Shown: positions 27,297-44,528, numbered from the stretch's first letter. The stretch: DNA of 64,000 bases from a virus (IMGVR_UViG_3300023174_000099:1-64000); one strand, 5' to 3'. Translations and numbers: made by a program. Notes: generated from the sequence alone by a model not told the origin.

Positions 27297-27325
27297 TTGA
27301 CTTTGTTGCCCAATTTGTCTATATT
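27297..27325 (+). promoter_or_regulatory. sigma70 promoter: aataatccTTGACT-17-TATATT
   Basis: Sequence. Confidence 0.5.
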
Positions 27326-27344
27326 ACATTGAAAGGAAACGGGA

Positions 27345-27657: not shown

Positions 27658-27727
27658 GTTTGCCGAAAAGGGTAGCTCCCCTGTTAGTGCCTATACACTA
27701 ACTAGGCAAAGTCTTATAGGAGACAAA

Positions 27728-28306
27728 ATGTACAGAGAAATTAAAGAAAATGAACTAAGAATAGATAGCTCACTAAAGTATGCTTACTTTCTAGATAAGA
27801 ATCATCCACTAGCAACTGGTAACTCATATAGGGTTTACTACCATAGGCATATAATGTCAATGAAGCTAGGCAGATGGGTTACTTCAGAAGAAGTTGTTCA
27901 TCACAAAGATGAAAACCGTTCCAATAACTCAATAGATAATCTAGAATTAACAACTAATAGTGAACATGCTAGGCTACATCAAACTATATTAGTAGATATA
28001 ACCTGTCAATGTTGTAATACCATGTTTAAACCAAAAGACTCAGATCAGATTTATTGCAGTCAAAAATGTGCTTCCTTAGCTAGACAGAAAAAGAGTCATA
28101 ACTCTTTTGATAAAAGCTTATTGGAAAAACAAATTTGGGAGCTTGGATTTACACAGACAGGTAAAATATATGGCTACTCAGATACTGGTATTAAAAAGTT
28201 AGCCAAAAAGTTAAATTGTGCTTTACCTCCTCCATATTTTCATAATAAAATACGAAGTTCCGAGGAAAGACTAAATTCATATTATTCGGATGTAGCTCAG
28301 CGGTAG
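27728..28306 (+). CDS. HNH homing endonuclease with C-terminal zinc ribbon; 3' end overlaps tRNA-Asn
   Basis: HHKDENRSNNSIDNLELTTNSEHARLH is an HNH motif; CQCCN...CSQKC; leader motif GGGTAGCTCCCCTG upstream. Confidence 0.75.
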   Translation: MYREIKENELRIDSSLKYAYFLDKNHPLATGNSYRVYYHRHIMSMKLGRWVTSEEVVHHKDENRSNNSIDNLELTTNSEHARLHQTILVDITCQCCNTMFKPKDSDQIYCSQKCASLARQKKSHNSFDKSLLEKQIWELGFTQTGKIYGYSDTGIKKLAKKLNCALPPPYFHNKIRSSEERLNSYYSDVAQR

Positions 28307-28361
28307 TAGCTCTTGTCTGTTAAACAAGTGGTCGCAGGTTCGATCCCTGCCATCCGAGCCA
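28286..28361 (+). tRNA. tRNA-Asn (GTT)
   Basis: Acceptor tcggatg/catccga, loop cuGUUaa, T-arm gcaggTTCGATCcctgc, CCA. Confidence 0.75.
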
Positions 28362-28377
28362 GTTTTTGGAGATAACC

Positions 28378-28545
28378 ATGCTAGAAATAGCTATTGCACT
28401 ATACGTAATTGTCGGAATCATTACGTTTCTAACGGCGATCTCCGATAAATATGTTAAGTTAAACTCTAAACTAACAACTATTTTTGGTTTACTTAGTTTC
28501 GTTTGGCCCATCCTTTGGCTAGTTTATCTAGTCGATGAGCTATAA
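28378..28545 (+). CDS. Small membrane protein (55 aa, below the ORF-track cutoff)
   Basis: ATG after RBS tggagataacc; two hydrophobic segments. Confidence 0.35.
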   Translation: MLEIAIALYVIVGIITFLTAISDKYVKLNSKLTTIFGLLSFVWPILWLVYLVDEL

Positions 28546-28573
28546 AATATTGTGGGCCTGTATTTCAAAGGTA

Positions 28574-28648
28574 GAAAATGCTCCTCATAAGAGCTAAGAT
28601 GGGAGTTCGAGTCTCTCCGGGCCTACCAAGATAGCTGAAAAGGGTAGC
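28574..28648 (+). tRNA. tRNA-Met (CAT)
   Basis: Acceptor gggcctg/cgggcct (2 GU), loop cuCAUaa, T-arm gggagTTCGAGTctctc, CCA. Confidence 0.6.
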
Positions 28649-28701
28649 TCCCCTGTTAGTACCTATATGCTAACTAGGCTAATGCCTTATAGGAGGCTAA
28701 A

Positions 28702-29295
28702 ATGTTAATTTCAGAGAAAGAAGAACTTATAGCTTTAATATTAAGTGACTTAGATACAAGTATCTTACATAGATATAATATAAACTTTACTATTTTTTGT
28801 AATGCCATAGCTAGTGGTGAAAATCTCCACTCCAAGTTGGGTGTAAGTTACAATAGTTTAAGTAAAATAATTAAGGACTTGTTTCCCAATAAAAATAAAG
28901 GTAAACTCCTAAATTATGTATTATCTTTAGTAGATCACAAAGTTTGTACTAGTTGCGAAAAATTCTTGCATACAGAAGATTTTAGATTAAACTCAAGCAA
29001 TGCTGATGGTCTTAATGCACATTGCAAAATGTGCCATGCTGTAGTTACTTATAAAACACAAAATTATAGACAATCAAACTATAATGCTAGAAAGGCTCAG
29101 AGAACTCCCAAATGGGCGAACCTTGAGACAATAAAAGAGTTTTATTCTAAGTGCCCAGAAGGCTACCATGTAGATCATATAATACCTTTGAACGGGGAAT
29201 TAGTATGCGGATTACATGTTGAGAATAACCTTCAATATCTAACAGCGCAAGAAAATATTCAAAAGAGCAATAAGTTTGTGCCTTATAGTATATGA
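28702..29295 (+). CDS. HNH homing endonuclease with zinc-finger region
   Basis: EGYHVDHIIPLNGELVCGLHVENNLQYLTAQEN is an HNH motif; CTSC..CKMCH; conserved leader motif upstream. Confidence 0.75.
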   Translation: MLISEKEELIALILSDLDTSILHRYNINFTIFCNAIASGENLHSKLGVSYNSLSKIIKDLFPNKNKGKLLNYVLSLVDHKVCTSCEKFLHTEDFRLNSSNADGLNAHCKMCHAVVTYKTQNYRQSNYNARKAQRTPKWANLETIKEFYSKCPEGYHVDHIIPLNGELVCGLHVENNLQYLTAQENIQKSNKFVPYSI

Positions 29296-29858
29296 CAACA
29301 ATTCTTGCACTAGACATGTCGGGAACTCCTCGTGCATGGATCAATTGCGACGAAGCCATTAGCTATCATGCTAAAGACCTCGTCGCATGGTCACTTGGCG
29401 AAACTGTCGCTGAGTATCACGGAGGGTTCAATCGTATAACCGGAAAGCAGAGCAAGCTTGAAACTAGCAGTATTATTGCTATTAAAGGCTCCGAGTTCCA
29501 TAAACATACTAAAGTTCTTCTAACAAATCCTACCCTTTTTGCTAGAGACAGGCATTTATGTGCTTATTGTGGGTTTACCCATACCAATCATAGATTTTTT
29601 AGCCGCGATCATATTGTGCCACGTTCGCGTGGTGGTAAAGACGAGTGGACTAATGTGGTTACAGCCTGCGTGCCTTGTAATCAAGAGAAAGGCGCTAAGA
29701 CTCTTAATGAGTCTGATATGAGTCTTATTTATGTTCCCTATGCTCCTAATCACTATGAGAATATGATTCTTAAGAACAAACGTATTCTAGCAGATCAAAT
29801 GGAATATCTCCTAGCAGGAGTTCCAAAACACAGTAGGGTGTGGTGGCCGACCGTTTAG
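29292..29858 (+). CDS. HNH endonuclease (McrA-like)
   Basis: CAYCG...DHIVPRSRGGKDEWTNVVTACVPCNQEK. Confidence 0.75.
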   Translation: MTTILALDMSGTPRAWINCDEAISYHAKDLVAWSLGETVAEYHGGFNRITGKQSKLETSSIIAIKGSEFHKHTKVLLTNPTLFARDRHLCAYCGFTHTNHRFFSRDHIVPRSRGGKDEWTNVVTACVPCNQEKGAKTLNESDMSLIYVPYAPNHYENMILKNKRILADQMEYLLAGVPKHSRVWWPTV

Positions 29859-29913
29859 GCATCTGATTGCAACCCAGATTCAAGCAGGTTAAATTCCTGT
29901 CCACACCTCCAAT

Positions 29914-29987
29914 GCCGGTATAGTTAAGTGATATAACAGTTGCCTTGTAAGCATCAGTTCAGAGTTTGATTCTCTGTTCCGGCACCA
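29914..29987 (+). tRNA. tRNA-Thr (TGT)
   Basis: Acceptor gccggta/ttccggc (1 mismatch), loop cuUGUaa, T-arm cagagTTTGATTctctg, CCA. Confidence 0.6.
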
Positions 29988-29988
29988 C

Positions 29989-30064
29989 GTACCCTTAGCT
30001 CAATGGTTAGAGCGACCGCCTTTTAAGCGGTAGGTTCCGGGTTCAAGTCCCGGAGGGTTCACCA
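29989..30064 (+). tRNA. tRNA-Lys (TTT)
   Basis: D-arm gctcaatggttagagc, loop cuUUUaa, T-arm ccgggTTCAAGTcccgg, CCA. Confidence 0.7.
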
Positions 30065-30071
30065 TAATTAC

Positions 30072-30145
30072 GTCGGTGAAGTGTTACGGTAGCACGGCGG
30101 TCTCCAAAACTGCAAGCCAGAGTTCGACTCTCTGCACCCTCGCCA
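30072..30145 (+). tRNA. tRNA-Trp (CCA) with two adjacent acceptor-stem mismatches (2-71 U-U, 3-70 C-C)
   Basis: Anticodon stem gcggt/actgc with loop cuCCAaa, T-arm cagagTTCGACTctctg, CCA. Confidence 0.5.
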
Positions 30146-30146
30146 T

Positions 30147-30220
30147 TTCCCGTTCGTCTAAAGGTAGGACCCTAGACTTTGAATCTGGTTATCGTGGTTC
30201 GAATCCACGGCGGGAAACCA
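30147..30220 (+). tRNA. tRNA-Gln (TTG)
   Basis: Acceptor tttcccg/cgggaaa, loop cuUUGaa, T-arm cgtggTTCGAATccacg, CCA. Confidence 0.7.
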
Positions 30221-30410
30221 ATTAGGAGATTATTGTGCTTCTTAGTACTTACGAACAAAATAATAGAATTGCTAAAATTCATAGAGAAGACGAAACTTTC
30301 GTCGTCTATATGTATGAAGATAATATTTTAAAAGAGCGCAGACCTCTTATTGGTTATTCTGAGCAATATGCTGAGAACTGCGCTGAAAACTGGATTACAG
30401 GAATTATTTA

Positions 30411-30620
30411 ATGTTTCTAAAAGCAATTTGGTCAGAAGGTTGCCCCAAGCGGGAATATACAGCGGGTCACATGGGCGACGCTCGTGGTGAAACGCTAGAA
30501 GAAGTTTGTAATGATCTAGCCTCTCGTAAGGAATGGTTCGCGCGCAAGTATAAAAACTTGCGATATGATGGGATGCGACTATTTCTTAGCGAGGAAGAAG
30601 CTAGAGAAAGTTTTGGGTGA
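30411..30620 (+). CDS. Hypothetical protein (69 aa); 3' end abuts tRNA-Ser
   Basis: ORF track. Confidence 0.4.
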   Translation: MFLKAIWSEGCPKREYTAGHMGDARGETLEEVCNDLASRKEWFARKYKNLRYDGMRLFLSEEEARESFG

Positions 30621-30703
30621 GTTGGCTGAGCGGTCTAAAGCGACAGTTTGCTAAATTGTTGTACTTAACGGTACCGAGGGTTCGAATCCCTCACTCACCT
30701 CCA
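30616..30703 (+). tRNA. tRNA-Ser (GCT), type II
   Basis: Acceptor ggtgagt/actcacc, loop uuGCUaa, long variable arm gtacttaacggtac, T-arm gagggTTCGAATccctc, CCA. Confidence 0.7.
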
Positions 30704-30718
30704 TTAAAATAGATGTTG

Positions 30719-30747
30719 ACTTGTCACCCTAACTAGGGTATATTACG
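30719..30747 (+). promoter_or_regulatory. sigma70 promoter: TTGACT-17-TATATT with CCTAACTAGG-like spacer
   Basis: TTGACTtgtcaccctaactagggTATATT; spacer motif shared with the promoter at 32381. Confidence 0.5.
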
Positions 30748-30773
30748 TTATTCTCTTTAAGAAAGGTTAATTT

Positions 30774-31565
30774 ATGAATTTTAAGATTATCGCCGTATCA
30801 GCCCTAGCTCTTACTCTAGCTGCTTGCTCGCGTGTTGAGACTGGCCAGTCAGCTATCCGCGTCAACTTTGATAAGACCATTGAAAAGGAAGAACTACTTC
30901 CAGGTTCGTTTAATCAAACTCTATTTGGGGATGTTCTTCTGTTTCCCGTCAAGGACGTTTCTGTATCTGTAGAGGATCTAACTCCTCTAGCGTCGGATAA
31001 CAGCACTGTTGCAGACTTTGACGTATCAATCATCTACAACATTAATCCAAGCTCAGTAGCTGATATCTACACAACTAAGAGCCGTTCATTCCATGCTACG
31101 GACGACGAAGGCCACACCTATTTGATGTTCAATTATATGCATCAGGTTGGTCGCAATGCGGTCTATAAGATCGCTCGCCGGTACGAATCGCTGAAGATGA
31201 ATGATAGCCGAGCTGAGATTGAGAACTCTATTCGTGAAGAAGTTGTTCGTTCGCTTCAGGAAGAAAAGCTTGATACCTCAATTAATATCTCGCAGGTTCT
31301 AGTCAAGCAGATTATTCCTGCTAAAAACATCGTTCAGTCAGCTAACCTTCTGGTTCAGGCTCAGAACGAGCGTAAGCGTAAGGCTGTTGAAGTCGATACT
31401 GCTAAGCTAGAAGCTGAACGTATTGCGGCTCTGAATGCTAACGCTGGTGCGACCAAGTACATGGAAGCTACTGCTATCGTTACGATTGCGGAAGCGGTTG
31501 CTGCTGGTAAGGTTAACACGATCGTAATTCCATATGACTTCAAGGGCATTGTGAACGTAAAATGA
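30774..31565 (+). CDS. SPFH/band-7 (prohibitin/HflK-like) domain lipoprotein
   Basis: Signal plus lipobox LTLAAC; C-terminal Ala/Glu-rich coiled region typical of SPFH proteins. Confidence 0.5.
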   Translation: MNFKIIAVSALALTLAACSRVETGQSAIRVNFDKTIEKEELLPGSFNQTLFGDVLLFPVKDVSVSVEDLTPLASDNSTVADFDVSIIYNINPSSVADIYTTKSRSFHATDDEGHTYLMFNYMHQVGRNAVYKIARRYESLKMNDSRAEIENSIREEVVRSLQEEKLDTSINISQVLVKQIIPAKNIVQSANLLVQAQNERKRKAVEVDTAKLEAERIAALNANAGATKYMEATAIVTIAEAVAAGKVNTIVIPYDFKGIVNVK

Positions 31566-31819
31566 TTATTTGGCTTATCGGATTCCTAGCGTTTATCTTT
31601 TATCGGACTTTTAAGGCCGGTATGAAGTCAGATAGTCTATTCTACATGGATAGAATGGAATATACTACTGACTATACTAAGAAAGTACTAGTACGTAAAT
31701 TTGATGGAGATAAGTTATTTTTCTACGGTATTACAACTATTGTCGTAGGACTCTCATGGCCTATCTCGTTACCCTGCATTGGCATTTACCTACTAGGCAA
31801 GCGATTCACTGCTAAGTGA
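31562..31819 (+). CDS. Small membrane protein (2 TM), translationally coupled to the SPFH gene
   Basis: ATGA overlap; hydrophobic IIWLIGFLAFIF and ITTIVVGLSWPISLPCIGIYLLG. Confidence 0.45.
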   Translation: MIIWLIGFLAFIFYRTFKAGMKSDSLFYMDRMEYTTDYTKKVLVRKFDGDKLFFYGITTIVVGLSWPISLPCIGIYLLGKRFTAK

Positions 31820-31831
31820 TTTATAGGAGGC

Positions 31832-32224
31832 GTGAGTATGAGACTATTCTTCAAGTCTAAAGATGGCGGTCCAGATAGCTCTGTAACAGGCTACTGGCTT
31901 ATCGAGTCAAAGAAGCTCTTTTCTATTGTGCTTCTCAAATTTGACGGTCGTAGCCGTGAAGCTTATCATACTCACGCCTTCAATGCATGGAGTTGGATTC
32001 TTCCTAGTGGACTCGGCATGACGGAACATCTAGAAGATGGGTCTAGAAAGTTTCTCAAGCCTGATTCCTTTGTGTTTACTCCTCGTGATCGGATGCACAA
32101 AGTAGACAGTAATGGCACTACTTGGGTTCTGTCTTTTAGAGGCCCTTGGTTGGACAATTGGAAAGAAATTAACGAGCATGGTCATCAAACGCTGACACAT
32201 GGTCGCAAAGTTATGGACACTTAG
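31832..32224 (+). CDS. Hypothetical protein (130 aa)
   Basis: RBS ataggaggcgtgagtATG. Confidence 0.5.
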   Translation: MSMRLFFKSKDGGPDSSVTGYWLIESKKLFSIVLLKFDGRSREAYHTHAFNAWSWILPSGLGMTEHLEDGSRKFLKPDSFVFTPRDRMHKVDSNGTTWVLSFRGPWLDNWKEINEHGHQTLTHGRKVMDT

Positions 32225-32289
32225 CTCAGTAGGTAGAGCGCAGCCCTCTTAAGGCTTAGGTCACAGGTTCGATCCCTGTAGTGTCTACC
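32215..32289 (+). tRNA. tRNA-Lys (CTT)
   Basis: D-arm gctcagtaggtagagc, loop cuCUUaa, T-arm acaggTTCGATCcctgt, CCA. Confidence 0.55.
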
Positions 32290-32290
32290 A

Positions 32291-32368
32291 TATGCCCGTA
32301 GCTCAACTGGAATAGAGCGTCTGATTACGAATCAGAAGGTTGAGGGTTCGAGTCCTTCCGGGCATACC
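32291..32368 (+). tRNA. tRNA-Arg (ACG)
   Basis: Acceptor atgcccg/cgggcat, loop uuACGaa, T-arm gagggTTCGAGTccttc, CCA. Confidence 0.7.
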
Positions 32369-32380
32369 ATAAAATACATA

Positions 32381-32409
32381 TTGACTTAGTAGCCTAACTA
32401 GGCTATATT
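32381..32409 (+). promoter_or_regulatory. sigma70 promoter inside the tRNA array: TTGACT-17-TATATT, TSS about 3 nt before tRNA-Ile
   Basis: TTGACTtagtagcctaactaggcTATATT. Confidence 0.55.
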
Positions 32410-32418
32410 ACATAAATG

Positions 32419-32504
32419 ATGTTCCATAGCTCAGCTGGTAGAGCGCGACACTGATAATGTCGAGGTCACTGGTTCGAACCCAGTTGGAACAACCATGGGG
32501 ATGT
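32419..32504 (+). tRNA. tRNA-Ile (GAT)
   Basis: Acceptor tgttcca/tggaaca, D-arm gctcagctggtagagc, loop cuGAUaa, T-arm actggTTCGAACccagt, CCA. Confidence 0.75.
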
Positions 32505-32505
32505 A

Positions 32506-32571
32506 GCTCACCGGGGAGAGCGTCTGATTTGCATTCAGAAGGTAGCAGGTTCGAGTCCTGTCATCTCCACC
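32506..32571 (+). tRNA. tRNA-Ala (TGC)
   Basis: Acceptor ggggatg/catctcc, loop uuUGCau, T-arm gcaggTTCGAGTcctgt, CCA. Confidence 0.7.
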
Positions 32572-32575
32572 ATTT

Positions 32576-32650
32576 TCTAGATGTGGCCTAATGGTAAGGC
32601 ACCGCGTTTGGGGCGCGGGGACTGGGAGTTCGAGTCTCTCCATCTAGACC
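32576..32650 (+). tRNA. tRNA-Pro (TGG)
   Basis: Acceptor ctagatg/catctag, anticodon stem ccgcg/cgcgg with loop uuUGGgg, T-arm gggagTTCGAGTctctc, CCA. Confidence 0.7.
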
Positions 32651-32722
32651 AGTTTTTGCTGAAAGGGTAGCTCCCCTGTCTGTCCTCCTACGACAGAATA
32701 AGCAATTCAAGTAGGAGTTAAA

Positions 32723-33223
32723 ATGAATGGTACTTTATACAGAATTATAAATATGAAAAATGATAAGTCGTATATTGGTAAGACTTATCAAGATATGCAC
32801 ACTAGACTATCTCAACACATACGTGACGCTAATAAGTTTCCCTATAGACCCCTTTATGCTGCTATGAACAAGTACGGACTAGATTCTTTCTCTATGGAAA
32901 TCATTGGAGAATTTCCAGAAGGTATCCTGGAGCATAAAGAAATAGAATATATAGAAATATACAATTCTTACGGCCAGAGAGGCTATAACGCCACAAAAGG
33001 TGGGGATGGAGTTAGATACCTAGACCTCCCAGAAGAAGAAATAGTAAATCTATATAAATCAAATACTATAAAATACATAGCTAATTTCTATAGCGTAGAT
33101 CATAGTACTATACGAAAAATACTACTAAATCAAGGTATCTCCCTAAGAAATCATAAGGAAGATAGTATTTTTGCGGAAAGTAAAAGAAAAAATGCATCTA
33201 AAATACTTTTAGCACATTCATAA
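32723..33223 (+). CDS. GIY-YIG homing endonuclease, interrupted: in-frame TAA at 33221 separates the catalytic domain from a conserved C-terminal domain (33224-33378)
   Basis: LYRIINMKNDKSYIGKTY is a GIY-YIG motif. After the stop the same frame reads VYENTYECAKDLIEIG...VCTGNRKSYKGLIFKYDI, homologous to the C-terminus of the 13129 gene. Confidence 0.7.
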   Translation: MNGTLYRIINMKNDKSYIGKTYQDMHTRLSQHIRDANKFPYRPLYAAMNKYGLDSFSMEIIGEFPEGILEHKEIEYIEIYNSYGQRGYNATKGGDGVRYLDLPEEEIVNLYKSNTIKYIANFYSVDHSTIRKILLNQGISLRNHKEDSIFAESKRKNASKILLAHS

Positions 33224-33251
33224 GTATATGAAAATACTTATGAATGTGCTA
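33205..33251. repeat. Perfect 17-bp inverted repeat (agcacattcataagtat / atacttatgaatgtgct) flanking the in-frame TAA of the GIY-YIG gene
   Basis: Direct reading of the sequence; loop atgaaa. Confidence 0.7.
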
Positions 33252-33384
33252 AAGATCTTATTGAAATAGGTATAATTAGTCCAACACTGTCTATTAAGTC
33301 AATACAGCATGGTATAAGAAATGTATGCACAGGTAATAGAAAGTCCTATAAAGGCTTAATATTTAAATACGATATTTAGTAGAT

Positions 33385-33460
33385 AGACTAGTAGCTCAGT
33401 GGTAGTAGCGCTGCTTTTACACAGCAGAGGTCATAGGTTCGAAACCTATCTAGTCTACCA
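33385..33460 (+). tRNA. tRNA-Val (TAC)
   Basis: Acceptor agactag/ctagtct, anticodon stem ctgct/agcag with loop uuUACac, T-arm ataggTTCGAAAcctat, CCA. Confidence 0.7.
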
Positions 33461-33462
33461 GT

Positions 33463-33536
33463 TCCCCCTTCGTCTAACGGTAGGATAGCAGACTCTGACT
33501 CTGTATGTGGTGGTTCGAATCCATCAGGGGGATCCA
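33463..33536 (+). tRNA. tRNA-Gln (CTG)
   Basis: Acceptor tccccct/aggggga, loop cuCUGac, T-arm ggtggTTCGAATccatc, CCA. Confidence 0.6.
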
Positions 33537-33537
33537 T

Positions 33538-33612
33538 GACGGCGTAGTGTAGTTGGTAACACGCAGGCTTGTGGTGCCTGAGTCACGGGTTCGAATCCCG
33601 TCGTCGCGACCA
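33538..33612 (+). tRNA. tRNA-His (GTG) with mismatched top of acceptor stem (1-72 G-G, 2-71 A-C) and no encoded G-1
   Basis: Perfect anticodon stem caggc/gcctg with loop uuGUGgu, D-arm gtgtagttggtaacac, T-arm acgggTTCGAATcccgt, CCA. Confidence 0.5.
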
Positions 33613-33621
33613 GAGTTAAAT

Positions 33622-33706
33622 GCGGATGTGGCGGAATTGGTAGACGCCCTGGTTTTAGGTACCAGTATCGAAAGGTGTGGGGGTTCGAGTCCCTTCATCC
33701 GCACCA
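33622..33706 (+). tRNA. tRNA-Leu (TAG), type II
   Basis: Acceptor gcggatg/catccgc, loop uuUAGgu, long variable arm, T-arm gggggTTCGAGTccctt, CCA. Confidence 0.7.
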
Positions 33707-33707
33707 T

Positions 33708-33793
33708 GGGAGCGCGGCTTGAGTTGGAGAGCAGCGGCTGACTGTAAATCAGTTCCTTCGGGTGAGTAGGTTCGAATCCTTCCGCTCCCACCA
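33708..33793 (+). tRNA. tRNA-Tyr (GTA), type II
   Basis: Acceptor gggagcg/cgctccc, loop cuGUAaa, variable arm tccttcgggtga, CCA. Confidence 0.65.
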
Positions 33794-33798
33794 TATTT

Positions 33799-33873
33799 GG
33801 CCCGGTCGTCTAGTGGCTAGGATACTTGGTTTTCACCCAAGAGAAGCGGGATCGAAACCCGTTCGGGCTACCA
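33799..33873 (+). tRNA. tRNA-Glu (TTC)
   Basis: D-arm gtctagtggctaggat (Glu-like), anticodon stem cttgg/ccaag with loop uuUUCac, T-arm gcgggATCGAAAcccgt, CCA. Confidence 0.7.
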
Positions 33874-35174: not shown

Positions 35175-35447
35175 ATGACAAAAGACGAATTAATTAACGC
35201 AGTAAAAGAGTTTGGAGATGCAACTATCACGTATAGAAGCTTAGAGTCAAATAAGCTGAAGTACAATGTTTGCACTCTAGATTTTTCCACCCCATACATT
35301 CAAGATAAGTCTAATAGAGCCAGGGAAACAGAAGATACAGTTCTTATGTTCTGCTGGGATGCTGACTCCTTTAGGCTTATCAGACCCTCTAGTGTAACTA
35401 GTGTAGCCCCTTTAGCGGCCTCGCTAAAGGAAAGGTCACATGGATGA
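35175..35447 (+). CDS. Hypothetical protein
   Basis: ORF track. Confidence 0.4.
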   Translation: MTKDELINAVKEFGDATITYRSLESNKLKYNVCTLDFSTPYIQDKSNRARETEDTVLMFCWDADSFRLIRPSSVTSVAPLAASLKERSHG

Positions 35448-35724
35448 TGAAGAAATCTATTCACGAATAATTCACTGCACTGATGATTTTCAGGTTCGCC
35501 TGACAATCAACAGATTCAGAGGCGTCGAGTACCTTCATGTTAGAAAGTACTTTTTAGACTTCTCTGAGGAGTGGATGCCGTCTAAAGAAGGAGTTGCTAT
35601 GCCACTAGATCTAAATAACTCAAAAGAGCTATTTATCGGCTTAGTTGAAATCTTGTCTTTAGCTGAGTCTAAAGATGTGATAGTATCAAACTTCAAAGAA
35701 CTTTTACAGGATATTTATCAATGA
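35440..35724 (+). CDS. Hypothetical protein
   Basis: ORF track. Confidence 0.4.
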   Translation: MDDEEIYSRIIHCTDDFQVRLTINRFRGVEYLHVRKYFLDFSEEWMPSKEGVAMPLDLNNSKELFIGLVEILSLAESKDVIVSNFKELLQDIYQ

Positions 35725-36665
35725 AGAACTTCCTAGATTATGCGAGTGCCAAATATTACGCGGGTGATCCAATCATCAGCGATGAGGAATTCGATAAGCT
35801 AGCGGAGTACTACGGATATCAAGGCGTGGGGGCTCCAGTCGTTGGCGACAGGATTCCTCACGCCTTTCCTATGTGGAGTCTACAGAAGTGTTATGATGAC
35901 GAACCGCTTATTGATCTAGGTGGCGAAGTGGTTGTAACTCCGAAGCTTGATGGAGCTGCTGTAGCTCTTTACTACGCGGAAGGTAGATTTGTTCTAGCCC
36001 TTACTCGTGGCGACGGTAAGGAGGGTCTAGATATTACAGACAAGATGGCTACTCTAGTTCCAAATGAACTTGAGCACTGGATCAATCCATTCTTGCAAAT
36101 TACAGGTGAGATTGTAGCTCCTAAGACGATTGAGAATGCTCGCAACTATGCTGCTGGCGCTCTGAACCTAAAGTTAGTAGACGAGTTTCAATCTAGGAAC
36201 TTGACCTTTGTTGCTTATGGGGTTACGCCCTTTGTAGATAATGAACATTGGTCTACAGATATGTTGTATCTAAGTATTGAGGGCTTCAATACTGCAACTA
36301 ATAAATCAAAAGACTGGTACGATCAGTTCCCTCAGGATGGCCTAGTGTATAGGCTTAACAAGCACAATGAGTTCCAAGCTCTAGGGTATACTTCCAAGCA
36401 TCCTCGTGGTGCCTTTGCTCTTAAGGAGCGAAAGGGCGGAGTAGTTACTAAACTTCTAGCAGTAGAATGGCAGGTTGGCCGTAGCGGTGTAGTTAGTCCA
36501 GTAGCAATCTTGGAACCCGTTAACATTGGTGGCGCTGTAGTCTCTAGGGCTACACTACACAATGCTAAGTATATCCAAGAACTAAATTTAGAGTTGCATT
36601 GCTTAGTAGAAGTTATACGAGCAGGTGAGATTATTCCTAGAGTTGTAAGGAGAGTATATGAATAA
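35721..36665 (+). CDS. ligA: NAD-dependent DNA ligase, N-terminal part (Ia, adenylation and OB domains); gene is split
   Basis: AKYYAGDPIISDEEFDKL (domain Ia), KLDGAAVALYYAEGRFVLALTRGDGKEGLDIT (KxDG adenylation motif), EGLVYR, RAGEIIPRV at the end of the OB fold. Confidence 0.7.
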   Translation: MKNFLDYASAKYYAGDPIISDEEFDKLAEYYGYQGVGAPVVGDRIPHAFPMWSLQKCYDDEPLIDLGGEVVVTPKLDGAAVALYYAEGRFVLALTRGDGKEGLDITDKMATLVPNELEHWINPFLQITGEIVAPKTIENARNYAAGALNLKLVDEFQSRNLTFVAYGVTPFVDNEHWSTDMLYLSIEGFNTATNKSKDWYDQFPQDGLVYRLNKHNEFQALGYTSKHPRGAFALKERKGGVVTKLLAVEWQVGRSGVVSPVAILEPVNIGGAVVSRATLHNAKYIQELNLELHCLVEVIRAGEIIPRVVRRVYE

Positions 36666-36906
36666 ACTAATTATTTTCTCAGCTTCTTGGTGTAGTCCTT
36701 GTAAGAGACTTAAAAATACTTTAGAGTCTCTAAATGATTACTCGAATATCAAAGTGTATGATATTGATATTAACGTAGAGAAAGCTATAGAATGGAGAGT
36801 GGATGCGGTACCCACTATTATATTAGTGAATGATCAAGGGGAGGAGCTTAAGAGGACACTGGGTGTCTTACCCAAAGAAAAGCTCCTAGAACTTCTAAAT
36901 GCTTAA
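36658..36906 (+). CDS. trx: Thioredoxin
   Basis: WCSPC active site; size 82 aa. Confidence 0.65.
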   Translation: MNKLIIFSASWCSPCKRLKNTLESLNDYSNIKVYDIDINVEKAIEWRVDAVPTIILVNDQGEELKRTLGVLPKEKLLELLNA

Positions 36907-38065
36907 TAAGGCTACTTTAGTAGTAGCTCTACTATTGAGTGCTACCGCCGCATGGTACTCAATATCGGGGCTTACTGCCATATTTGCCGCAGCTATCGTT
37001 CCCATAATTATTATGGGAATAGTATTAGAAACAGCAAAAATAGTTACTAGCCTATGGCTGCATAAATACTGGGATACATGTGGTTGGCAGCTTAAACTAT
37101 ACTTAGTCCCAGCAGTAATAATTCTAGCATTTATTACTAGTATGGGTATTTTTGGATTTCTGTCGAAAGCTCACAGCGACCAAGCTTTAGTATCTAGTAA
37201 TGTATTAGCTAAGCTAGAAGTATTTGATACTAAGCTGGATAACGCGAAAGCTATTATACAATCTAATAGACAGAGCCTAATACAAATGGACGCACAAGTA
37301 GATCAACTACTAGTAAGGTCCGATGACGCTAACGGAGCTATGATAGCAGCTAGGCTGAGAAATAGACAAAAGGCTGAAAGAACTCAGCTGCTAAATAGCA
37401 TATCTAATAACCAAGATACTATTTCTGAAATAAACGAAAAGTCCGCACCTCTTAGAGCCGAAGCTAGACAACTTGAGGCTGAGGTAGGACCAATTAAGTA
37501 TATTGCTGCGCTTATTTACGGCACTGATCTCAATCAAACCATGCTTGAAAGTGCTGTAAGAGCAATCATCATACTACTTGTAGTAGTATTTGACCCACTA
37601 GCCTTAGCCCTTATTATTGCTGCCCAAAAGGCACCAGTAGAGCCAGTAGCAGTTCCTCAGCCTAAAGAGGAAGTAGAGGAAGAAGAAGAGCCTATGAGTA
37701 AGGGAATCTATAATCCTAAGTATTTTGAGAACCATCCAGATGAAGCTAACTTAGACGCAATTCTATATGTAGTAGTTCTAGTAAATCAGACTACTAATTT
37801 ACGAGAATGCGTTAAGATAGGAATTACGAAGGGTCGCAATTGGAAGGATGCTATCAAGAGAGCTGGTGGTTTCAAGGGATACGACATTCGTATTCAGAAG
37901 ATCATTCCGGGTAAACTAGAAGAAATTTATTATCTAGAAGAGTATCTGCATGAACTATGGATCGACCATAGATATCACGGAGCCTCTAAGTTTGGGGGTT
38001 GGACTGAACTATTCTCCATAGATAAACTATCTGAGATTCTAGCAAGTATTCCCCCTAAGCTATAA
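36899..38065 (+). CDS. T5orf172/MUG113 domain protein with N-terminal TM segments and coiled coil (paralog 3), inserted between the two halves of ligA
   Basis: C-terminal LYVVVLVNQTTNLRECVKIGITKGRNWKDAIKR...GGWTELFSI. Confidence 0.65.
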   Translation: MLNKATLVVALLLSATAAWYSISGLTAIFAAAIVPIIIMGIVLETAKIVTSLWLHKYWDTCGWQLKLYLVPAVIILAFITSMGIFGFLSKAHSDQALVSSNVLAKLEVFDTKLDNAKAIIQSNRQSLIQMDAQVDQLLVRSDDANGAMIAARLRNRQKAERTQLLNSISNNQDTISEINEKSAPLRAEARQLEAEVGPIKYIAALIYGTDLNQTMLESAVRAIIILLVVVFDPLALALIIAAQKAPVEPVAVPQPKEEVEEEEEPMSKGIYNPKYFENHPDEANLDAILYVVVLVNQTTNLRECVKIGITKGRNWKDAIKRAGGFKGYDIRIQKIIPGKLEEIYYLEEYLHELWIDHRYHGASKFGGWTELFSIDKLSEILASIPPKL

Positions 38066-38072
38066 AAAAATA

Positions 38073-38101
38073 ATCCTTGACATTTACCCCTAACATGGGT
38101 A
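38073..38101 (+). promoter_or_regulatory. sigma70 promoter: aataatccTTGACA-17-TATAAT
   Basis: TTGACAtttacccctaacatgggTATAAT. Confidence 0.55.
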
Positions 38102-38131
38102 TAATGGCTGTATCAAGAGCAGAGAGATAGT

Positions 38132-38884
38132 ATGCAAATAGAAATACCAAACAATTGTCCTTCTTGCAATAGCTCTCTAGCTCTTGTTAATGATATTCTT
38201 TATTGTAAGAATCCAGATTGTGGCTCCATGAGCCGTAAGCGTGTTGAGCATTTTGCCACGACGCTAAAGATTAAAGGTCTAGGACCTTCTTCAATTGAGA
38301 AGTTAGAGTTATCGCATCCTCTCGATATTTATTCCATGAGCCTAGAGGAAATTACAGAGGCTCTTAATTCAGAGAAAGTAGCAACTAAGCTTTTTGATGA
38401 GATTGAGCAATCTAAGTCTAAAAATCTTAACGATCTGCTACCTGCTCTAGGTATTCCACTCATTGGTCAGACAGCCACAGATAAACTTGCAAAAGCCTGT
38501 AAGGCTCTTGAAGAAATTACAGATGAAGTCTGTAAGTCTGCTGGCTTAGGCCCAAAAGCTACTGAAAACCTTCTAACGTGGCTACATGAAAACGACTGGT
38601 ATTTACTATTACCTCAAAACCTAGCTTTTGAAAATACTGTGTCTTCAGGTCAGCAAGTTAAAGGTATTGTCTGTATTACAGGCAAACTAGATAGCTACAA
38701 AACTAAGGCGGAAGCCCAAGTCGAACTAGAACGATTAGGATATGTAGTGAAGTCATCCCTAACGAAAGACGTCACTATTCTAGTAAATGAGAGCGGAAAA
38801 GAAACCGCGAAAACCTCAAAAGCCAGAGACGCTGGCGTTTTGATTGTAGAAAACCTAAGACAATATATAACGGAGAATAATTAA
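38132..38884 (+). CDS. ligA: NAD-dependent DNA ligase, C-terminal part (Zn-finger, HhH, BRCT domains)
   Basis: CPSCNSSL...CKNPDC zinc finger, GLGPSSIEKL HhH, C-terminal BRCT-like KGIVCITGKLDSYKTKAEAQVELERLGYVV. Confidence 0.65.
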   Translation: MQIEIPNNCPSCNSSLALVNDILYCKNPDCGSMSRKRVEHFATTLKIKGLGPSSIEKLELSHPLDIYSMSLEEITEALNSEKVATKLFDEIEQSKSKNLNDLLPALGIPLIGQTATDKLAKACKALEEITDEVCKSAGLGPKATENLLTWLHENDWYLLLPQNLAFENTVSSGQQVKGIVCITGKLDSYKTKAEAQVELERLGYVVKSSLTKDVTILVNESGKETAKTSKARDAGVLIVENLRQYITENN

Positions 38885-38887
38885 TTT

Positions 38888-39604
38888 ATGACTACCCTAA
38901 AGTGGACCGAAGATCGTACTGCCCAGCTAGTAAACGGCGTTGCCGATGAAACCCCTGTTTCACGCGCTACTGTAGCCACCCTAGCCGAAGATCTAGAAAC
39001 AAGTACTCGGTCAATCTCTTCCAAGCTTCGTAAGCTTGGTTACGACGTAGAACTAGCTACAGCAGCCCCAAAGGCATTCTCTGACGAAGTAACAGCAGAA
39101 CTTCGTCAATTTGTTACTGAGAATAGCCGTGAGTTCACATACGCTGAAATCGCTGAGCAGTTCCCCGGTGGCTACACAGCCAAGGCTATTCAGGGCAAGA
39201 TCCTTTCAATGGAACTAACCCAGCACGTTAAGGAAGCTCCAAAGCCAGAGAGCACAAAGACCTACACTGCTGATGAAGAAGCCGTAGTTCTTCGCATGAT
39301 TCGTGCTGGTAACTTCGTTGAAGAAATTTCCGAAGCTGTTGGCAAGAGCGTTCAGTCAGTTCGTGGTAAGGCTCTAAGCCTACAGCGCGCTGGTGAGATC
39401 GACGCTATGCCAAAGCAGCGTGATCTAAAGGGAGCTGCTGCTGATCCACTAGAAGCCATCAGTGATATCGCTAATATGACTGTTGCCCAGATTGCTGAAG
39501 CTATTGGTAAGACCGAGCGTGGTGTTAAGACCATGCTAACGCGTCGTGGTCTAGTAGCTTCTGACTATGATGGTGCAGCTAAGCGTGAGAAAGCTGCTGC
39601 TTAA
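38888..39604 (+). CDS. Protein with four tandem HTH-like modules (paralog family)
   Basis: WTEDRTAQL..., STRSISSKLRKLGYDV, GKSVQSVRGKALSLQRAGEI, GKTERGVKTMLTRRGLV. Confidence 0.5.
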   Translation: MTTLKWTEDRTAQLVNGVADETPVSRATVATLAEDLETSTRSISSKLRKLGYDVELATAAPKAFSDEVTAELRQFVTENSREFTYAEIAEQFPGGYTAKAIQGKILSMELTQHVKEAPKPESTKTYTADEEAVVLRMIRAGNFVEEISEAVGKSVQSVRGKALSLQRAGEIDAMPKQRDLKGAAADPLEAISDIANMTVAQIAEAIGKTERGVKTMLTRRGLVASDYDGAAKREKAAA

Positions 39605-39611: not shown

Positions 39612-39650
39612 CTTTGAAAGTGAAAGCCGGAGCAGCTTCTAGCTGCTCCG
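39612..39650 (+). terminator. Rho-independent terminator: agccggagcagc..gctgctccggct
   Basis: 12-bp perfect stem, loop ttct, followed by aaacttgtttt. Confidence 0.6.
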
Positions 39651-39676
39651 GCTAAACTTGTTTTAAGGAGACGACT

Positions 39677-41068: not shown

Positions 41069-41896
41069 ATGACAGTAGATGAGCTATTAACAAAAGAGAA
41101 CATATACTTTCGTTCCAGTGGAAAAGACCATGTAGTATGCTGTTTAAATCCAGATCACGAGGATAAAAACCCCAGTATGAGAATCGACAAGATTACTGGG
41201 GTTTTTAACTGTATGTCTTGTGGATTCTCTGGTAATATATTCGAGCACTTTGGTGGAAAACCTAATTGGCTTGGTATTCAGAGAGAGCGATTTAAAAGTC
41301 TAGTACAGAATAAACTAAAGGAGACGGTAGGTCTAGAGATTCCAGAAAATGCTACTCCCTTCGATCAGGAGTGGCGAGGTATCTCTAAAGAGACTTTCCG
41401 TAAATTTAGAGCCTTCCAGCATCCAGACTATGTTAATAGAGTGGTGTTTCCTATCACTGATATGTCTGGTAAGATCAGAGTGTTTTGTGGTAGAGACTTA
41501 GCGAACAACACACCCAAGTATATGTTCTATCCCGCAGAAACACACATACCTTTGTTTCCTATGGTAAAACCCTATAATGGCGATATTATTCTAGTAGAAG
41601 GCATCTTTGATATGCTAAACTTACACGACAAAGGTTTAACCAATGTTTGTTGTATGTTTGGTGTTAATAAGGGAAGCATTGACAAGCTCAAGCTTCTAAA
41701 AGTACAGAACATAAGCTCGGTAACTCTAATGCTAGATTCGGATGAAGCAGGGCAGCGCGGAGCTGAAAAGCTTAAAGCAGAGTTAGAGGGCCTACACGTA
41801 AGCGTAAACAACTTTGTATTACAAACAGTAAAAGATCCAGGTGAATTGACAGCCTCTAAAGTGATCAAATTAAAGGAGACCCTATACGGTGGCTAA
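41069..41896 (+). CDS. DNA primase (zinc-binding + TOPRIM)
   Basis: CCLNPDHEDKNPSM...CMSCG zinc ribbon; TOPRIM VEGIFDMLNLHD ... DSDEAG. Confidence 0.7.
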   Translation: MTVDELLTKENIYFRSSGKDHVVCCLNPDHEDKNPSMRIDKITGVFNCMSCGFSGNIFEHFGGKPNWLGIQRERFKSLVQNKLKETVGLEIPENATPFDQEWRGISKETFRKFRAFQHPDYVNRVVFPITDMSGKIRVFCGRDLANNTPKYMFYPAETHIPLFPMVKPYNGDIILVEGIFDMLNLHDKGLTNVCCMFGVNKGSIDKLKLLKVQNISSVTLMLDSDEAGQRGAEKLKAELEGLHVSVNNFVLQTVKDPGELTASKVIKLKETLYGG

Positions 41897-43634
41897 TGTA
41901 GCATTAATTGAGACTAAACCAAGCAGAACAAACTTCTTCAGTGAATTTGATGAAGCCTTTGAATTTGATAGGTTTGCCCTATGTTCTGACCCAACAATTA
42001 AAAAGGTCCTAAAGAAAAACGTAGATATTGAGTTCAATCCAGATAACTACGAATGGGTAATTCTAGTAGGTGCTGACACAGTAAAGTACTTTACTAAGGC
42101 ATCAGTAACAGACCATAGTGGCAAGATTGTTGATGAGAAGTTTCTCCCGGTAATCAATCCAGCTATGGTATCGTTCAAGCCTGAGTCTGCTAGAACTTGG
42201 GAAGAATCCAAAAAGAATATCGTCGGGTATATCACTGGGTCTAAGAAAGTAGTAAAGTATGCTACTGACAAGATCTATGGTATTCGTGACAGCGAGCAGC
42301 TTAAGAAGTTCTTGCAGGCTGCCATTGATAGTCCAAATTCTTTCATCGGTCTAGACTCTGAAACTTCCGGACTGTATCCTAGAGACGGTTACATTCTAGG
42401 TGTTAGTGTTTGTTATGAACGCGATCATGGCGTTTATATTGACTCAGACTGCATTGACGAAGAAGCATCATGGCTTTTTCAGGAACTATTCAACAAGAAG
42501 ATCGTAGTACTACACAACGCTAAGTTCGATATTCCCTTCTTCAAGTTCCATATGGGATGGGAGTTTCCTCGGTATGAAGATACAATGCTTCTTCACTACT
42601 GCATTGATGAAAATCCCGGTACCCACGGACTTAAGCAACTAGCTCTTCAGTTTACAGAATACGGTGACTATGAACAGCCAATGTATGACTGGATTGCTGA
42701 TTACTGTAAGCGTAACAGTGTTCTAAAGGAAGACTTCACCTTCGAAGCTATTCCTTTTGAAGTTATTCAGCCATACGCTGCTATTGACGCTATTGTAACT
42801 TTTCTTATCTACGCCAAGCTAAAGCCCTCCGTTCAGAAGAACAAGAAGCTAGACAAGGTATACAATGAGATCTTGATTCCAGCATCTGACTTTCTAATTG
42901 ACGTTCAGGACAATGGAGTTCCGTTCGATATGGATCGCCTAAAGTTTGGTCAGCTAGAAATGCAGAAGAGCATCGACGAGTCAGTTGCAGAGTTGTACTT
43001 AGAGCCTAAGATCAAAGAGTTTGAAGAATTTCAGGGTAAGCAGTTCAATCCTAATAGTGTCATGCAGCTACGCACGCTATTGTTTGATTTCTTAAAACTT
43101 TCCCCTACAGGTAAAAAGACTGGTACTGGTTCCAATTCAACTGATGCCGAAGTGCTTCAGGAACTAGCAGGACAACACCCCGTACCTCAGTTAATCCTTA
43201 ACATCCGTCAAAAGAGTAAGATTAAGAATACTTATCTGGACAAGATTATCCCACAGCTAGATAGGGATGGTAGACTTCGTACTAGCTTTAATATTCACGG
43301 CACTACTAGCGGACGACTAAGCTCTAGTGGTAAACTGAATATGCAGCAGCTACCACGAGATAACCCCGTTGTCAAGGGAGCCATCAAGGCAAAGCCTGGC
43401 CACAAGATCATCTCGATGGACTTGACCACTGCGGAAGTTTACGTAGCCGCAGTATTATCCAAAGATCCAGCACTTCAAGATGTGTTTAGAACTGGCCAAG
43501 ATTTTCACTCTACAGTAGCTCACCAGGTATTTAAGCTGGATTGCGAAGTAAGCGAAGTTAAAAAACTATATCCGCTTATGCGGCAAGCTGCTAAAAGCAC
43601 TACATTCGGGGTTAGTAACATAGCCCTCCTATAA
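41889..43634 (+). CDS. polA: DNA polymerase I family (family A), N-terminal part: 3'-5' exonuclease + palm up to motif B; truncated inside motif B
   Basis: Exo I FIGLDSETSGL; ends ...MRQAAKSTTFGVSNIALL* where RQAAKxxxFG is motif B. Confidence 0.75.
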   Translation: MANVALIETKPSRTNFFSEFDEAFEFDRFALCSDPTIKKVLKKNVDIEFNPDNYEWVILVGADTVKYFTKASVTDHSGKIVDEKFLPVINPAMVSFKPESARTWEESKKNIVGYITGSKKVVKYATDKIYGIRDSEQLKKFLQAAIDSPNSFIGLDSETSGLYPRDGYILGVSVCYERDHGVYIDSDCIDEEASWLFQELFNKKIVVLHNAKFDIPFFKFHMGWEFPRYEDTMLLHYCIDENPGTHGLKQLALQFTEYGDYEQPMYDWIADYCKRNSVLKEDFTFEAIPFEVIQPYAAIDAIVTFLIYAKLKPSVQKNKKLDKVYNEILIPASDFLIDVQDNGVPFDMDRLKFGQLEMQKSIDESVAELYLEPKIKEFEEFQGKQFNPNSVMQLRTLLFDFLKLSPTGKKTGTGSNSTDAEVLQELAGQHPVPQLILNIRQKSKIKNTYLDKIIPQLDRDGRLRTSFNIHGTTSGRLSSSGKLNMQQLPRDNPVVKGAIKAKPGHKIISMDLTTAEVYVAAVLSKDPALQDVFRTGQDFHSTVAHQVFKLDCEVSEVKKLYPLMRQAAKSTTFGVSNIALL

Positions 43635-43967
43635 AGTAATTTATAGGTAATAAACCTGCTCAATTGCTGGAAGCCTAAGTCTAAAATTAGATATGGTAAT
43701 CAGCAGCCAGAGGCGATAGGGATATCGTCAAATGGTTCAGAGACTCACAGAATTTCTAGAACAGAAGTTGCTGGGGTAATAAATTTTATATCTTGACTTT
43801 TTTTGGTCGAAATATAGTACCATCTTAATATTAAAAATTAATTTGGTGTTTATTACAAAAGGCAGGTATCTACGTATGGAATTAAATTTAGAAAACTATA
43901 CTAACAAATGGTAGAAAACGTAGATAAAGGTATAGTCCGTGCCCTACTAAAGTAGGGACTAACATGT
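43635..43967 (+). other. 333-nt in-frame non-coding insert splitting polA (candidate ORF-less group I intron or true split-gene junction); contains a TTGACT promoter-like element and hairpin ccctactAAagtaggg
   Basis: No ORF. Length is a multiple of 3. Flanks reconstitute motif B as FG-x-x-YQAG. Confidence 0.4.
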
Positions 43968-44528
43968 ATGTATCAGGCTGGTGCTCCTACTGTAGCCGAT
44001 CAGATCAATAAAGAAGCCCGCAGTAATAATATGGATTACAGATTCTCCCTACAGGAAGCTCAAGATGTTATTGACCAGTACTTCAAGACCTTCAAAGGAC
44101 TTAAGAGCTGGATTGATGTAAACAAGGAGTTCATTTCCAAGAATGGTTACATCTATTCTTTCTTTGGTCGTAAGCGCAGACTACCAAATGTTCTATCTAG
44201 CGATGGTGGCATCCGTAGTCATGCTGTAAGATCTGGTCTAAACTTCCTCGTGCAGTCTCCTAGCTCAGATGTTAACTTGCTAGGTGGCATTGATATGAAT
44301 AAGTTCATTAAGGACAACAAGATGAAGACTCGGATCTTCGCTCTAGTTCATGACTCTATTCTAGCAGAAGTACCAGAAGACGAGATCGAGTTGTATACCA
44401 CTACCCTTAAGAAGTTCATTCAAAAGGATCGTGGGCTTTCGATTCTTGGATGCCCTATCGGATGCGATTTCGAAATGGGTGATGACTACTCTCTAGGTAA
44501 GTTTGAGAAACAGTATGGAATACTATGA
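43968..44528 (+). CDS. polA: DNA polymerase I family, C-terminal part (rest of motif B through motif C)
   Basis: MYQAGAPTVADQIN..., LVHDSILAEVPEDE (motif C). Confidence 0.7.
   Translation: MYQAGAPTVADQINKEARSNNMDYRFSLQEAQDVIDQYFKTFKGLKSWIDVNKEFISKNGYIYSFFGRKRRLPNVLSSDGGIRSHAVRSGLNFLVQSPSSDVNLLGGIDMNKFIKDNKMKTRIFALVHDSILAEVPEDEIELYTTTLKKFIQKDRGLSILGCPIGCDFEMGDDYSLGKFEKQYGIL

Follow-up and report, generated by a model that had tools for sequence, protein, structure and literature searches.

Phage T5 encodes its nicotinamide adenine dinucleotide (NAD)-dependent DNA ligase in two pieces, LigA and LigB, and this split was reported with the T5 genome, according to a 2006 paper on LigN (Wang et al. 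2005, as cited in PMC1684257). A fragment of the LigA type that comprises domain Ia, the adenylation domain and the OB fold self-adenylates with NAD+ to the same extent as the complete enzyme, yet it does not ligate (PMC1684257). Since such an N-terminal fragment cannot ligate, subunit B is needed. The Protein Data Bank (PDB) entries 9hu3 and 9i5i contain two chains, named 'DNA ligase (NAD(+))' (339 amino acids, aa) and 'DNA ligase subunit B' (248 aa); the 9hu3 enzyme is 54% identical to T5 LigA and is therefore from another member of the family. A gene in pieces is also described for the T4-like phage Aeh1, in which nrdA is reportedly split by mobE, a free-standing homing endonuclease, an event said to be lineage-specific and clearly caused by the insert (Friedrich 2007; Crona 2011). 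According to the title of one study, the Aeh1 pieces assemble via interaction domains derived from the mobile element (PMC3045599). Homing endonucleases of the T5orf172 type are abundant in T5-like phages, in which they cluster beside essential genes, and canonical members carry CapR, DUF723 or DUF4379 zinc-finger repeats (Barth et al. 2023, PMC10448857). Here, we compare with these systems the ligase locus in a 64,000-nucleotide (nt) stretch of viral DNA (IMGVR_UViG_3300023174_000099:1-64000; hereafter, the window, meaning the whole stretch analysed). We are highly confident that this locus belongs to an uncultured T5-like phage (Demerecviridae type), in which it forms the block of replication genes, and that it encodes the long-known two-subunit NAD-dependent ligase, acting as a heterodimer. 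The split ligase is already known, and the window represents a new, divergent and uncultured member of the family.

A first-pass annotation, made from the sequence alone, had described an NAD-dependent ligase gene split in two with a thioredoxin gene and a T5orf172 gene in between. All four open reading frames (ORFs) were present, those of the two ligase halves with the same ends as in that annotation, and the locus comprised the following features.

35721-36665, + strand: ligA, N-terminal half of the ligase, 314 aa (Pfam, phrog_3359, PDB 9hu3_A and alignment to 2owo)
36658-36906, + strand: thioredoxin gene, 82 aa, with WCSPC (Pfam Thioredoxin, E=5e-13; phrog_22)
36899-38065, + strand: ORF388, 388 aa (ORF map)
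38077-38105, + strand: consensus sigma-70 promoter, TTGACA-17-TATAAT, directly 5' of ligB
38132-38884, + strand: ligB, subunit B, 250 aa (phrog_3498, PDB 9hu3_B and alignments to T. filiformis (Tfi) and E. coli LigA)

The ligA protein consisted of a short domain Ia, a nucleotidyltransferase domain and an OB fold, and it ended at about residue 393 of E. coli LigA. Pfam detected DNA_ligase_aden (E=1.2e-25) and DNA_ligase_OB (E=1.5e-26, residues 243-312), and residues 203-312 aligned to residues 282-391 of E. coli LigA (2owo). The adenylation lysine was K75 in KLDG, aligned to the KxDG motif of the E. coli and Tfi enzymes, and TRGDG was conserved. Domain Ia is the nicotinamide mononucleotide-binding module that confers NAD+ specificity. 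It was shorter in the window than in bacteria, and its residues 2-30 (..YYAGDPIISDEEFDKL..) aligned well to 9hu3_A and weakly to Tfi LigA 15-41. The ligB protein started at about residue 400 of E. coli LigA and contained the zinc finger, HhH and BRCT domains in this order, with C9, C12, C25 and C30 at the zinc-finger position; residues 3-241 aligned to E. coli LigA 402-662 and T. filiformis LigA 400-649. The two proteins matched the subunit-A family phrog_3359 (E=1.8e-97) and the subunit-B family phrog_3498 (E=9.5e-61), respectively, as well as 9hu3_A (E=5e-66) and 9hu3_B (E=3.6e-31). These results bore out the division of LigA domains between the two ORFs in the first-pass annotation, and its placement of the break at the OB/zinc-finger boundary agreed with the alignments to E. 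coli and Tfi LigA (approximately 393|400 in E. coli numbering). In the full-length family phrog_3869, the N-terminal half covered positions 14-381 and the C-terminal half positions 388-651, and neither these nor the LigA alignments revealed added residues at the break. The break is thus a clean one, within the OB-Zn linker.

At the DNA level, 35400-39100 had no megablast match among GenBank phages. With tblastn, the N-terminal half was found in 1,167 GenBank phage records and the C-terminal half in 976, nearly all of them Demerecviridae with Vibrio, Salmonella, Escherichia and Klebsiella as hosts, at approximately 45% and 40% identity, respectively. To describe the distribution of the split, a spread sample of 60 records was taken evenly down the ranking of the 1,237 GenBank phage records matching the concatenated halves in tblastn. 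All matches with at least 37% identity (T5-like phages) were in two pieces with spans of 1,834-2,884 base pairs (bp), whereas all whole-length matches with at most 29% identity were single ORFs (phages of Listeria, Acinetobacter, Rhizobium, Pseudomonas and Ralstonia); the latter are ordinary single-chain LigA. Thus, the search for an intact ligA in related phages, which the first-pass annotation had proposed, found none among the sampled matches at or above 37% identity. Both halves were kept across approximately 1,070 records in which one place covered at least 80% of the concatenated query, and ligA and ligB were adjacent in all genomes examined. Among metagenomic relatives that showed the junction or the insert, 14 of 14 were split, among them the IMG/VR contig L010, in which the halves are 93 bp apart without an insert, and the only 27% identical L014. 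A gap without a gene was also found in T5 (T5_ev212, 202 bp), and ligA and ligB of Aeromonas phage TS3 were adjacent without cargo. Because the split occurred in all T5-like genomes examined, including those with empty gaps (T5, TS3 and L010), it long predates the insert in the window. In all likelihood, the split is ancestral to the whole T5-like phage family rather than an event of the window genome, and the first-pass interpretation of a fragmentation event in this genome does not hold.

The LigA homologue of L014, a 126-kb IMG/VR contig, was split at 5956-7909 into ORFs of 345 and 262 aa at the OB|Zn boundary with a 127-bp gap. These were 27% and 25% identical to the window halves, and T5-like D5 or DnaB neighbours were not detected on this contig. 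The split in L014 could be independent or a very ancient shared one.

The arrangement in the window was not peculiar to one assembly. An identical ORF388 was recorded on four contigs, and the order ligA, thioredoxin gene, ORF388 and ligB was seen on the one contig whose neighbourhood was viewed; the contigs L004 and L005 (LigA 96% identical) also carried the window arrangement. A sequencing frameshift or assembly artefact was ruled out, as the arrangement recurred on other contigs and the intervening genes were under purifying selection. The possibility raised in the first-pass annotation that the two halves are one continuous ORF was thereby dismissed.

Several lines of evidence bear on whether the two halves are functional. 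The ratio of nonsynonymous to synonymous substitution rates (dN/dS) was 0.11 for ligA between the window and L005, and ligB gave approximately 0 with L005 and 0.08 with L013; values from more distant pairs were 0.07-0.2. Both halves are therefore under purifying selection (dN/dS of approximately 0 to 0.2). This selection, together with the retained catalytic motifs, favours a working heterodimer, which is very probably the best reading of the locus. The first-pass annotation had left it unclear whether the halves work in trans or the ligase is inactive; purifying selection, retention in T5-like records and the two-chain structures 9hu3 and 9i5i largely answer this. That the ORFs are instead decaying remnants and the phage uses host LigA could be argued from the domain scores of ligB in Pfam alone, which were weak (HHH_2, E=9e-5; ZBD, E=0.29; BRCT, E=0.07). 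Where the nucleotidyltransferase domain aligns to E. coli LigA 282-391, the window also reads 'vyrln', with R214 at a position that we take to be K290 of E. coli LigA, and 9hu3_A reads 'vrrvn', against 'vikvn' in E. coli. However, the crystallised 9hu3_A itself has Arg at the R214 position; the window retains KLDG, TRGDG and an intact Cys4 finger, the two halves have dN/dS values of 0-0.2, and both persist in the approximately 1,070 records with high coverage at one place. An inactive ligase is therefore extremely improbable.

Alternatively, the two proteins might have diverged into separate jobs without forming a heterodimer, with subunit A working alone, as an adenylyltransferase or in the manner of an RNA ligase, and subunit B serving as an independent DNA-binding protein or BRCT scaffold. 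The different promoters of the two genes, the distance of up to 1.5 kb between the genes and a weak Pfam RNA_ligase match of subunit A (E=4e-5, below the cut-off) could be read in this way. This is nevertheless very unlikely, considering the adjacency of ligA and ligB in all genomes examined, the inability of the N-terminal LigA fragment alone to ligate, and the naming by the depositors of the second chain as 'DNA ligase subunit B' in entries that it shares with the catalytic chain. A single-chain LigA could also be regained if the halves were rejoined after transcription or translation, whether through group I intron splicing, through a split intein or through ribosomal bypassing, and a genuine group I intron does occur in the DNA polymerase gene of the window genome. 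Against this, Rfam found nothing at E<=1 in 36400-38400, the gap holds a promoter and two complete genes under purifying selection, and ligB has its own ATG. Moreover, the two proteins correspond over their entire lengths to LigA 1-393 and 400-671, which leaves no room for intein halves, and the PDB entries list separate chains. Rejoining is barely credible on these grounds; intron or intein splicing of ligA-ligB was excluded as a candidate, given the lack of an Rfam match and of unaccounted residues at the break ends.

In the working heterodimer, subunit A would form the lysyl-AMP intermediate, and subunit B, with its zinc finger, HhH and BRCT domains, would contribute the half of the LigA clamp that binds DNA. 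The subunits would assemble non-covalently on nicked DNA via the native OB/Zn/HhH contacts, and the assembled clamp would then complete AMP transfer and seal nicks. Two points weigh against this account of the locus. For the window pair, heterodimer formation is inferred from relatives, and for 9hu3 and 9i5i, complex formation follows only from the shared entries and the name 'subunit B'.

The promoter before ligB matched the consensus TTGACA-17-TATAAT at 12 of 12 positions (38077-38105), as claimed in the first-pass annotation. The window contained 13 sites with at most one mismatch from TTGACA-N17-TATAAT, against 0.8 expected by chance, and three were perfect; sites of this consensus type include 1177-1205 (-), 3217-3245 (-) and 38077-38105 (+). 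T5 is known for strong consensus early promoters, and the excess in the window fits this feature. A perfect promoter occurred in the equivalent position in L005, in L010 (without insert) and in L011, and the T5 ligA-ligB gap contained TTGACA-17-TATACT and TTGCTA-17-TATAAT. The promoter before ligB is thus conserved with or without cargo.

The cargo itself varied considerably. The ligA-ligB gap in the window (1,466 bp, with two genes inside) was the largest in the spread sample. Vibrio phage pVp-1 carried a 73-aa gene (phrog_23191, unknown function) and a DprA-like gene (phrog_768) in this position; by these family assignments, the pVp-1 genes were rejected as homologues of the window cargo. 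Vibrio phages D254 and VspSw_1 had two or three small genes between the halves. Among the metagenomic relatives, L006, L008, L009 and L012 (approximately 72-75% LigA identity) and L013 had the order ligA, thioredoxin gene, free-standing 120-123-aa T5orf172-like gene and ligB, the free-standing gene having been read as an ORF only in L013. L011 had two extra small ORFs, L007 carried the thioredoxin gene and a zinc-finger T5orf172 homing-endonuclease-like gene, L016 carried a 121-aa T5orf172-like gene, a 72-aa gene and thymidylate synthase (ThyA), and the window, L005 and L020 carried a fused gene of the ORF388 type.

The thioredoxin gene between the halves, as named in the first-pass annotation, was confirmed, with the CxxC active site WCSPC at residues 11-15. 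It was present in L004-L009 and L011-L013 and absent from L010, L016, L020 and T5, and it was 45% identical between the window and L013, with flanks at 97%. The thioredoxin gene is lineage-specific cargo. It overlapped the ligA stop and the ORF388 start by 8 nt each, and its translation is therefore probably coupled to that of its neighbours. DNA identity between the window and L013 was 90-98% in the ligA 3' end and from approximately 37930 onwards but only 50-70% over the thioredoxin gene and, on the 5' side of the nuclease-like gene, over two-thirds of its length, and the 790-bp membrane module was missing from L013. This low-identity patch between high-identity flanks, together with the missing module, marks the ligA|ligB slot as a site of cassette exchange. 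The split would have created an intergenic slot with its own strong early promoter before ligB, which lineages later filled differently. In the clade of the window, the resident cargo is the thioredoxin gene and a small T5orf172-family (GIY-YIG-type) nuclease-like gene; the window lineage has in addition gained a DUF4407-like membrane and coiled-coil module, joined in frame to the nuclease-like domain.

The fused gene, ORF388, was divided into the following parts.

36899-37633, + strand: N-terminal module, residues 1-245, DUF4407-like (hydropathy, metagenome homologues)
37634-37693, + strand: linker, residues 246-265, acidic and proline-rich
37694-38065, + strand: C-terminal 123 aa, T5orf172/GIY-YIG-like

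ORF388 had nothing significant in Pfam, even at E<=10, and the T5orf172 assignment of its C-terminus is based on PHROG profiles, a fold search and the matches of other family members. Hydropathy indicated hydrophobic segments at residues 5-54, 61-91 and 212-247 around a long coiled-coil-like stretch. Residues 1-245 had at least 7,997 metagenome homologues, some with PF14362 (DUF4407). Among homologues of this module at 54-59% identity, several had a precomputed PF14362 assignment (that of P0131 marked 'weak'), and the window copy had no Pfam match. The best phage match of the module was a hypothetical protein of Pelagibacter phage Mosig (44% identity), and the module was absent from L006-L013. 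The free-standing sister genes of 121-123 aa start with MSKGIYN..., which corresponds to the internal Met266 of ORF388. This correspondence shows ORF388 to be an in-frame fusion of a putative four-segment membrane/coiled-coil module of the DUF4407 type and a T5orf172-like domain. The start Met of the bare form was kept as Met266 in the window and at the equivalent junction (PMSKGIYN) in L005 and P0112/L020, and the internal start may therefore still be used. L005 had a one-codon in-frame indel in the linker, and both modules had dN/dS <0.1 against L005. The fusion was also found in L020 (800-1951; approximately 65-78% identical), without the thioredoxin gene. Its recurrence in L020 and the low dN/dS of both modules indicate that the fusion is real and maintained.

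For the C-terminal domain, 100 homologues were listed, almost all of 121-123 aa, and ten had a precomputed PF10544 assignment. A Pfam T5orf172 match was obtained for 22 of the 31 aligned members of this 123-aa family (best, 1.6e-6); the window copy had no Pfam match at E<0.01 (MUG113, E=0.15) but matched phrog_681 'endonuclease' (E=8e-11). Y25, K41-I-G43, R56, E82, H86 and E105 were invariant in the family, with conserved Tyr, Arg and Glu at GIY-YIG-like positions. Tblastn of the domain against 50,697 GenBank phage records gave no match, and the family is therefore confined to one uncultured clade. Within this clade, the gene was near-universal and diverged roughly with its flanks; it was absent from L010 and from cultured T5-like phages. 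Pfam detected no DNA-binding domain (CapR, DUF723 or DUF4379) in ORF388. The orthologue in L007 (3399-4127), of 242 aa, had two DUF4379 treble-clef zinc fingers (E=1.2e-12) and CapR (5e-6), followed by T5orf172. Thus, at one locus, the T5orf172-like domain occurred in three architectures: bare, with zinc fingers (L007) and membrane-fused (window, L005 and L020). The T5orf172 gene of the first-pass annotation is accordingly correct for the last 123 aa only; the first approximately 245 aa are DUF4407-like, and the protein has no recognised DNA-binding domain.

These architectures bear on the idea that a T5orf172-type element split an intact ligA, as mobE did nrdA in Aeh1, with the present gene being that element or its descendant. 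The T5orf172-family gene lies between the halves throughout the clade, the L007 copy has the canonical zinc-finger and T5orf172 homing-endonuclease architecture, and the patch of 50-70% identity to L013 between flanks of 90-98% includes the nuclease gene. The abundance of such endonucleases beside essential genes in T5-like phages (PMC10448857) and the precedent of genes in pieces, as the title of the Aeh1 study presents it (PMC3045599), add to these observations. On the other hand, none of the T5-like genomes examined is without the split, even where the gap is empty (T5, TS3 and L010), and the 123-aa family is missing from the GenBank phage records searched. Most copies also lack a DNA-binding domain and diverge roughly with the flanking genes, a pattern more in keeping with long residence than with recent invasion. 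That a homing endonuclease caused the ancestral split is thus unlikely, although the idea deserves some weight. What stands of the resemblance noted in the first-pass annotation is that a homing-endonuclease-family gene sits in the split, whereas the causal reading fails for the window genome.

The bare and membrane-fused T5orf172 domains could instead be domesticated nucleases with a host- or phage-directed job other than homing. This idea arises from the in-frame fusion to a DUF4407-like membrane module in the window lineage and L020, with both modules under purifying selection; it is speculative, and we assign it a low probability. If true, a membrane-anchored GIY-YIG nuclease would be a new architecture, and one job that it might have is to attack incoming or host DNA while tethered to the inner membrane, for instance to exclude superinfecting phages. 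The three T5orf172 architectures at one locus could aid the study of homing-endonuclease domestication.

The genes around the ligase locus were also those expected from T5. They comprised the following features.

35440-35724, + strand: gene for a PC4-like single-stranded DNA (ssDNA)-binding regulator (Pfam PC4, E=4.5e-9)
38888-39604, + strand: gene for a D5-like DNA-binding protein (tblastn against D5 of T5, pVp-1 and TS3; Pfam Sigma70_r4_2, E=9e-7)
39625-39653, strand not assigned: perfect hairpin with a 13-bp stem between D5 and dnaB (terminator-like call on both strands)

The stop of the PC4-like gene overlapped the ligA start (ATGA), and tblastn matches to this gene lay 5' of ligA in T5, pVp-1 and all IMG/VR relatives; the T5 annotation at this position is 'putative ssDNA-binding transcriptional regulator'. 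In the ORF map, consecutive plus-strand ORFs in 35440-38065 overlapped by 4-8 nt, and ORF388 and ligB were separated by 66 bp. The D5-like gene is the conserved 3' neighbour of ligB in T5-like phages and was followed by DnaB-like and primase genes. The overall order in the window (PC4-like, ligA, ligB, D5, DnaB, primase and polymerase) was that of T5 and was also found in pVp-1 and TS3. The hairpin at 39625-39653 was GC-rich and had a clear T-run on neither side.

Further features were observed elsewhere in the window. A group I intron (Rfam RF00028, 76.7 bits) was found at 43603-43967 (+) inside the PolA-type DNA polymerase gene (41889-44528). Joining after U43612 and G43966 restored RQAAKSTTFGV-MYQAGAPT, a motif conserved in polymerases, and gave a protein of approximately 761 aa; the intron (approximately 43613-43966) had no sizeable ORF inside. 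Unlike the ligase, the polymerase gene is a truly interrupted gene. A permuted two-piece transfer-messenger RNA (tmRNA) gene of the alphaproteobacterial type was located at 21457-21768 (+) (Rfam RF04321, 83.6 bits; RF01849, 68.7 bits), with the tag peptide ANDNVAFALAA (ARAGORN). The tmRNA type hints at an alphaproteobacterial host, consistent with the membrane module of ORF388, which among phages is best matched in a Pelagibacter phage. The window also had 19 tRNA genes at 27020-33873 (+), which is typical of T5-like phages. A 166-aa GIY-YIG ORF (32723-33223; Pfam E=8e-7) was embedded among the tRNA genes, with sub-clusters on either side, where GC is low (0.32), and this setting suggests a free-standing homing endonuclease.

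The split-ligase claim itself adds little, as the split is a known hallmark of T5-like phages with solved structures and is here extended to an apparently aquatic uncultured lineage. Of more general relevance, the ligA|ligB junction is a long-lived cargo slot with its own promoter that has gained genes of nucleotide metabolism and nuclease type (thioredoxin, ThyA, DprA-like and T5orf172), and thus an example of a gene split becoming a site of genome plasticity.

Compared with the annotated T5-type subunits, to which the window proteins are 45% and 40% identical, the locus has the same division into Ia, nucleotidyltransferase and OB domains and zinc-finger, HhH and BRCT domains, the same break point and flanking genes, and a promoter in the gap; it differs in that the T5 gap of 202 bp is without a gene, whereas that of the window, at 1,466 bp, has two. 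With single-chain LigA (E. coli 2owo, phrog_3869 and jumbo-phage LigA), it shares all six LigA domains in order and the conserved catalytic motifs, but the window encodes two polypeptides, and its domain Ia and HhH region are shorter than those of E. coli LigA. The locus resembles Aeh1 nrdA/mobE in having an essential enzyme encoded as two ORFs with a GIY-YIG-superfamily nuclease gene between them, and its pieces, too, would have to assemble non-covalently. In contrast to Aeh1, the ligase split is family-wide and older than the insert, and it cuts cleanly through a natural interdomain linker without added interface residues. Finally, the T5orf172 homing endonucleases of ICP1, T5-like phages and Plateaulakeviruses (PMC10448857) share with ORF388 the T5orf172-family domain, a site between essential replication genes and a sequence-exchange boundary. 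Unlike the canonical enzymes, the window copy has no zinc-finger repeats and is fused to a membrane module, and most copies in its clade are bare proteins of 121-123 aa, with zinc fingers found only in L007.

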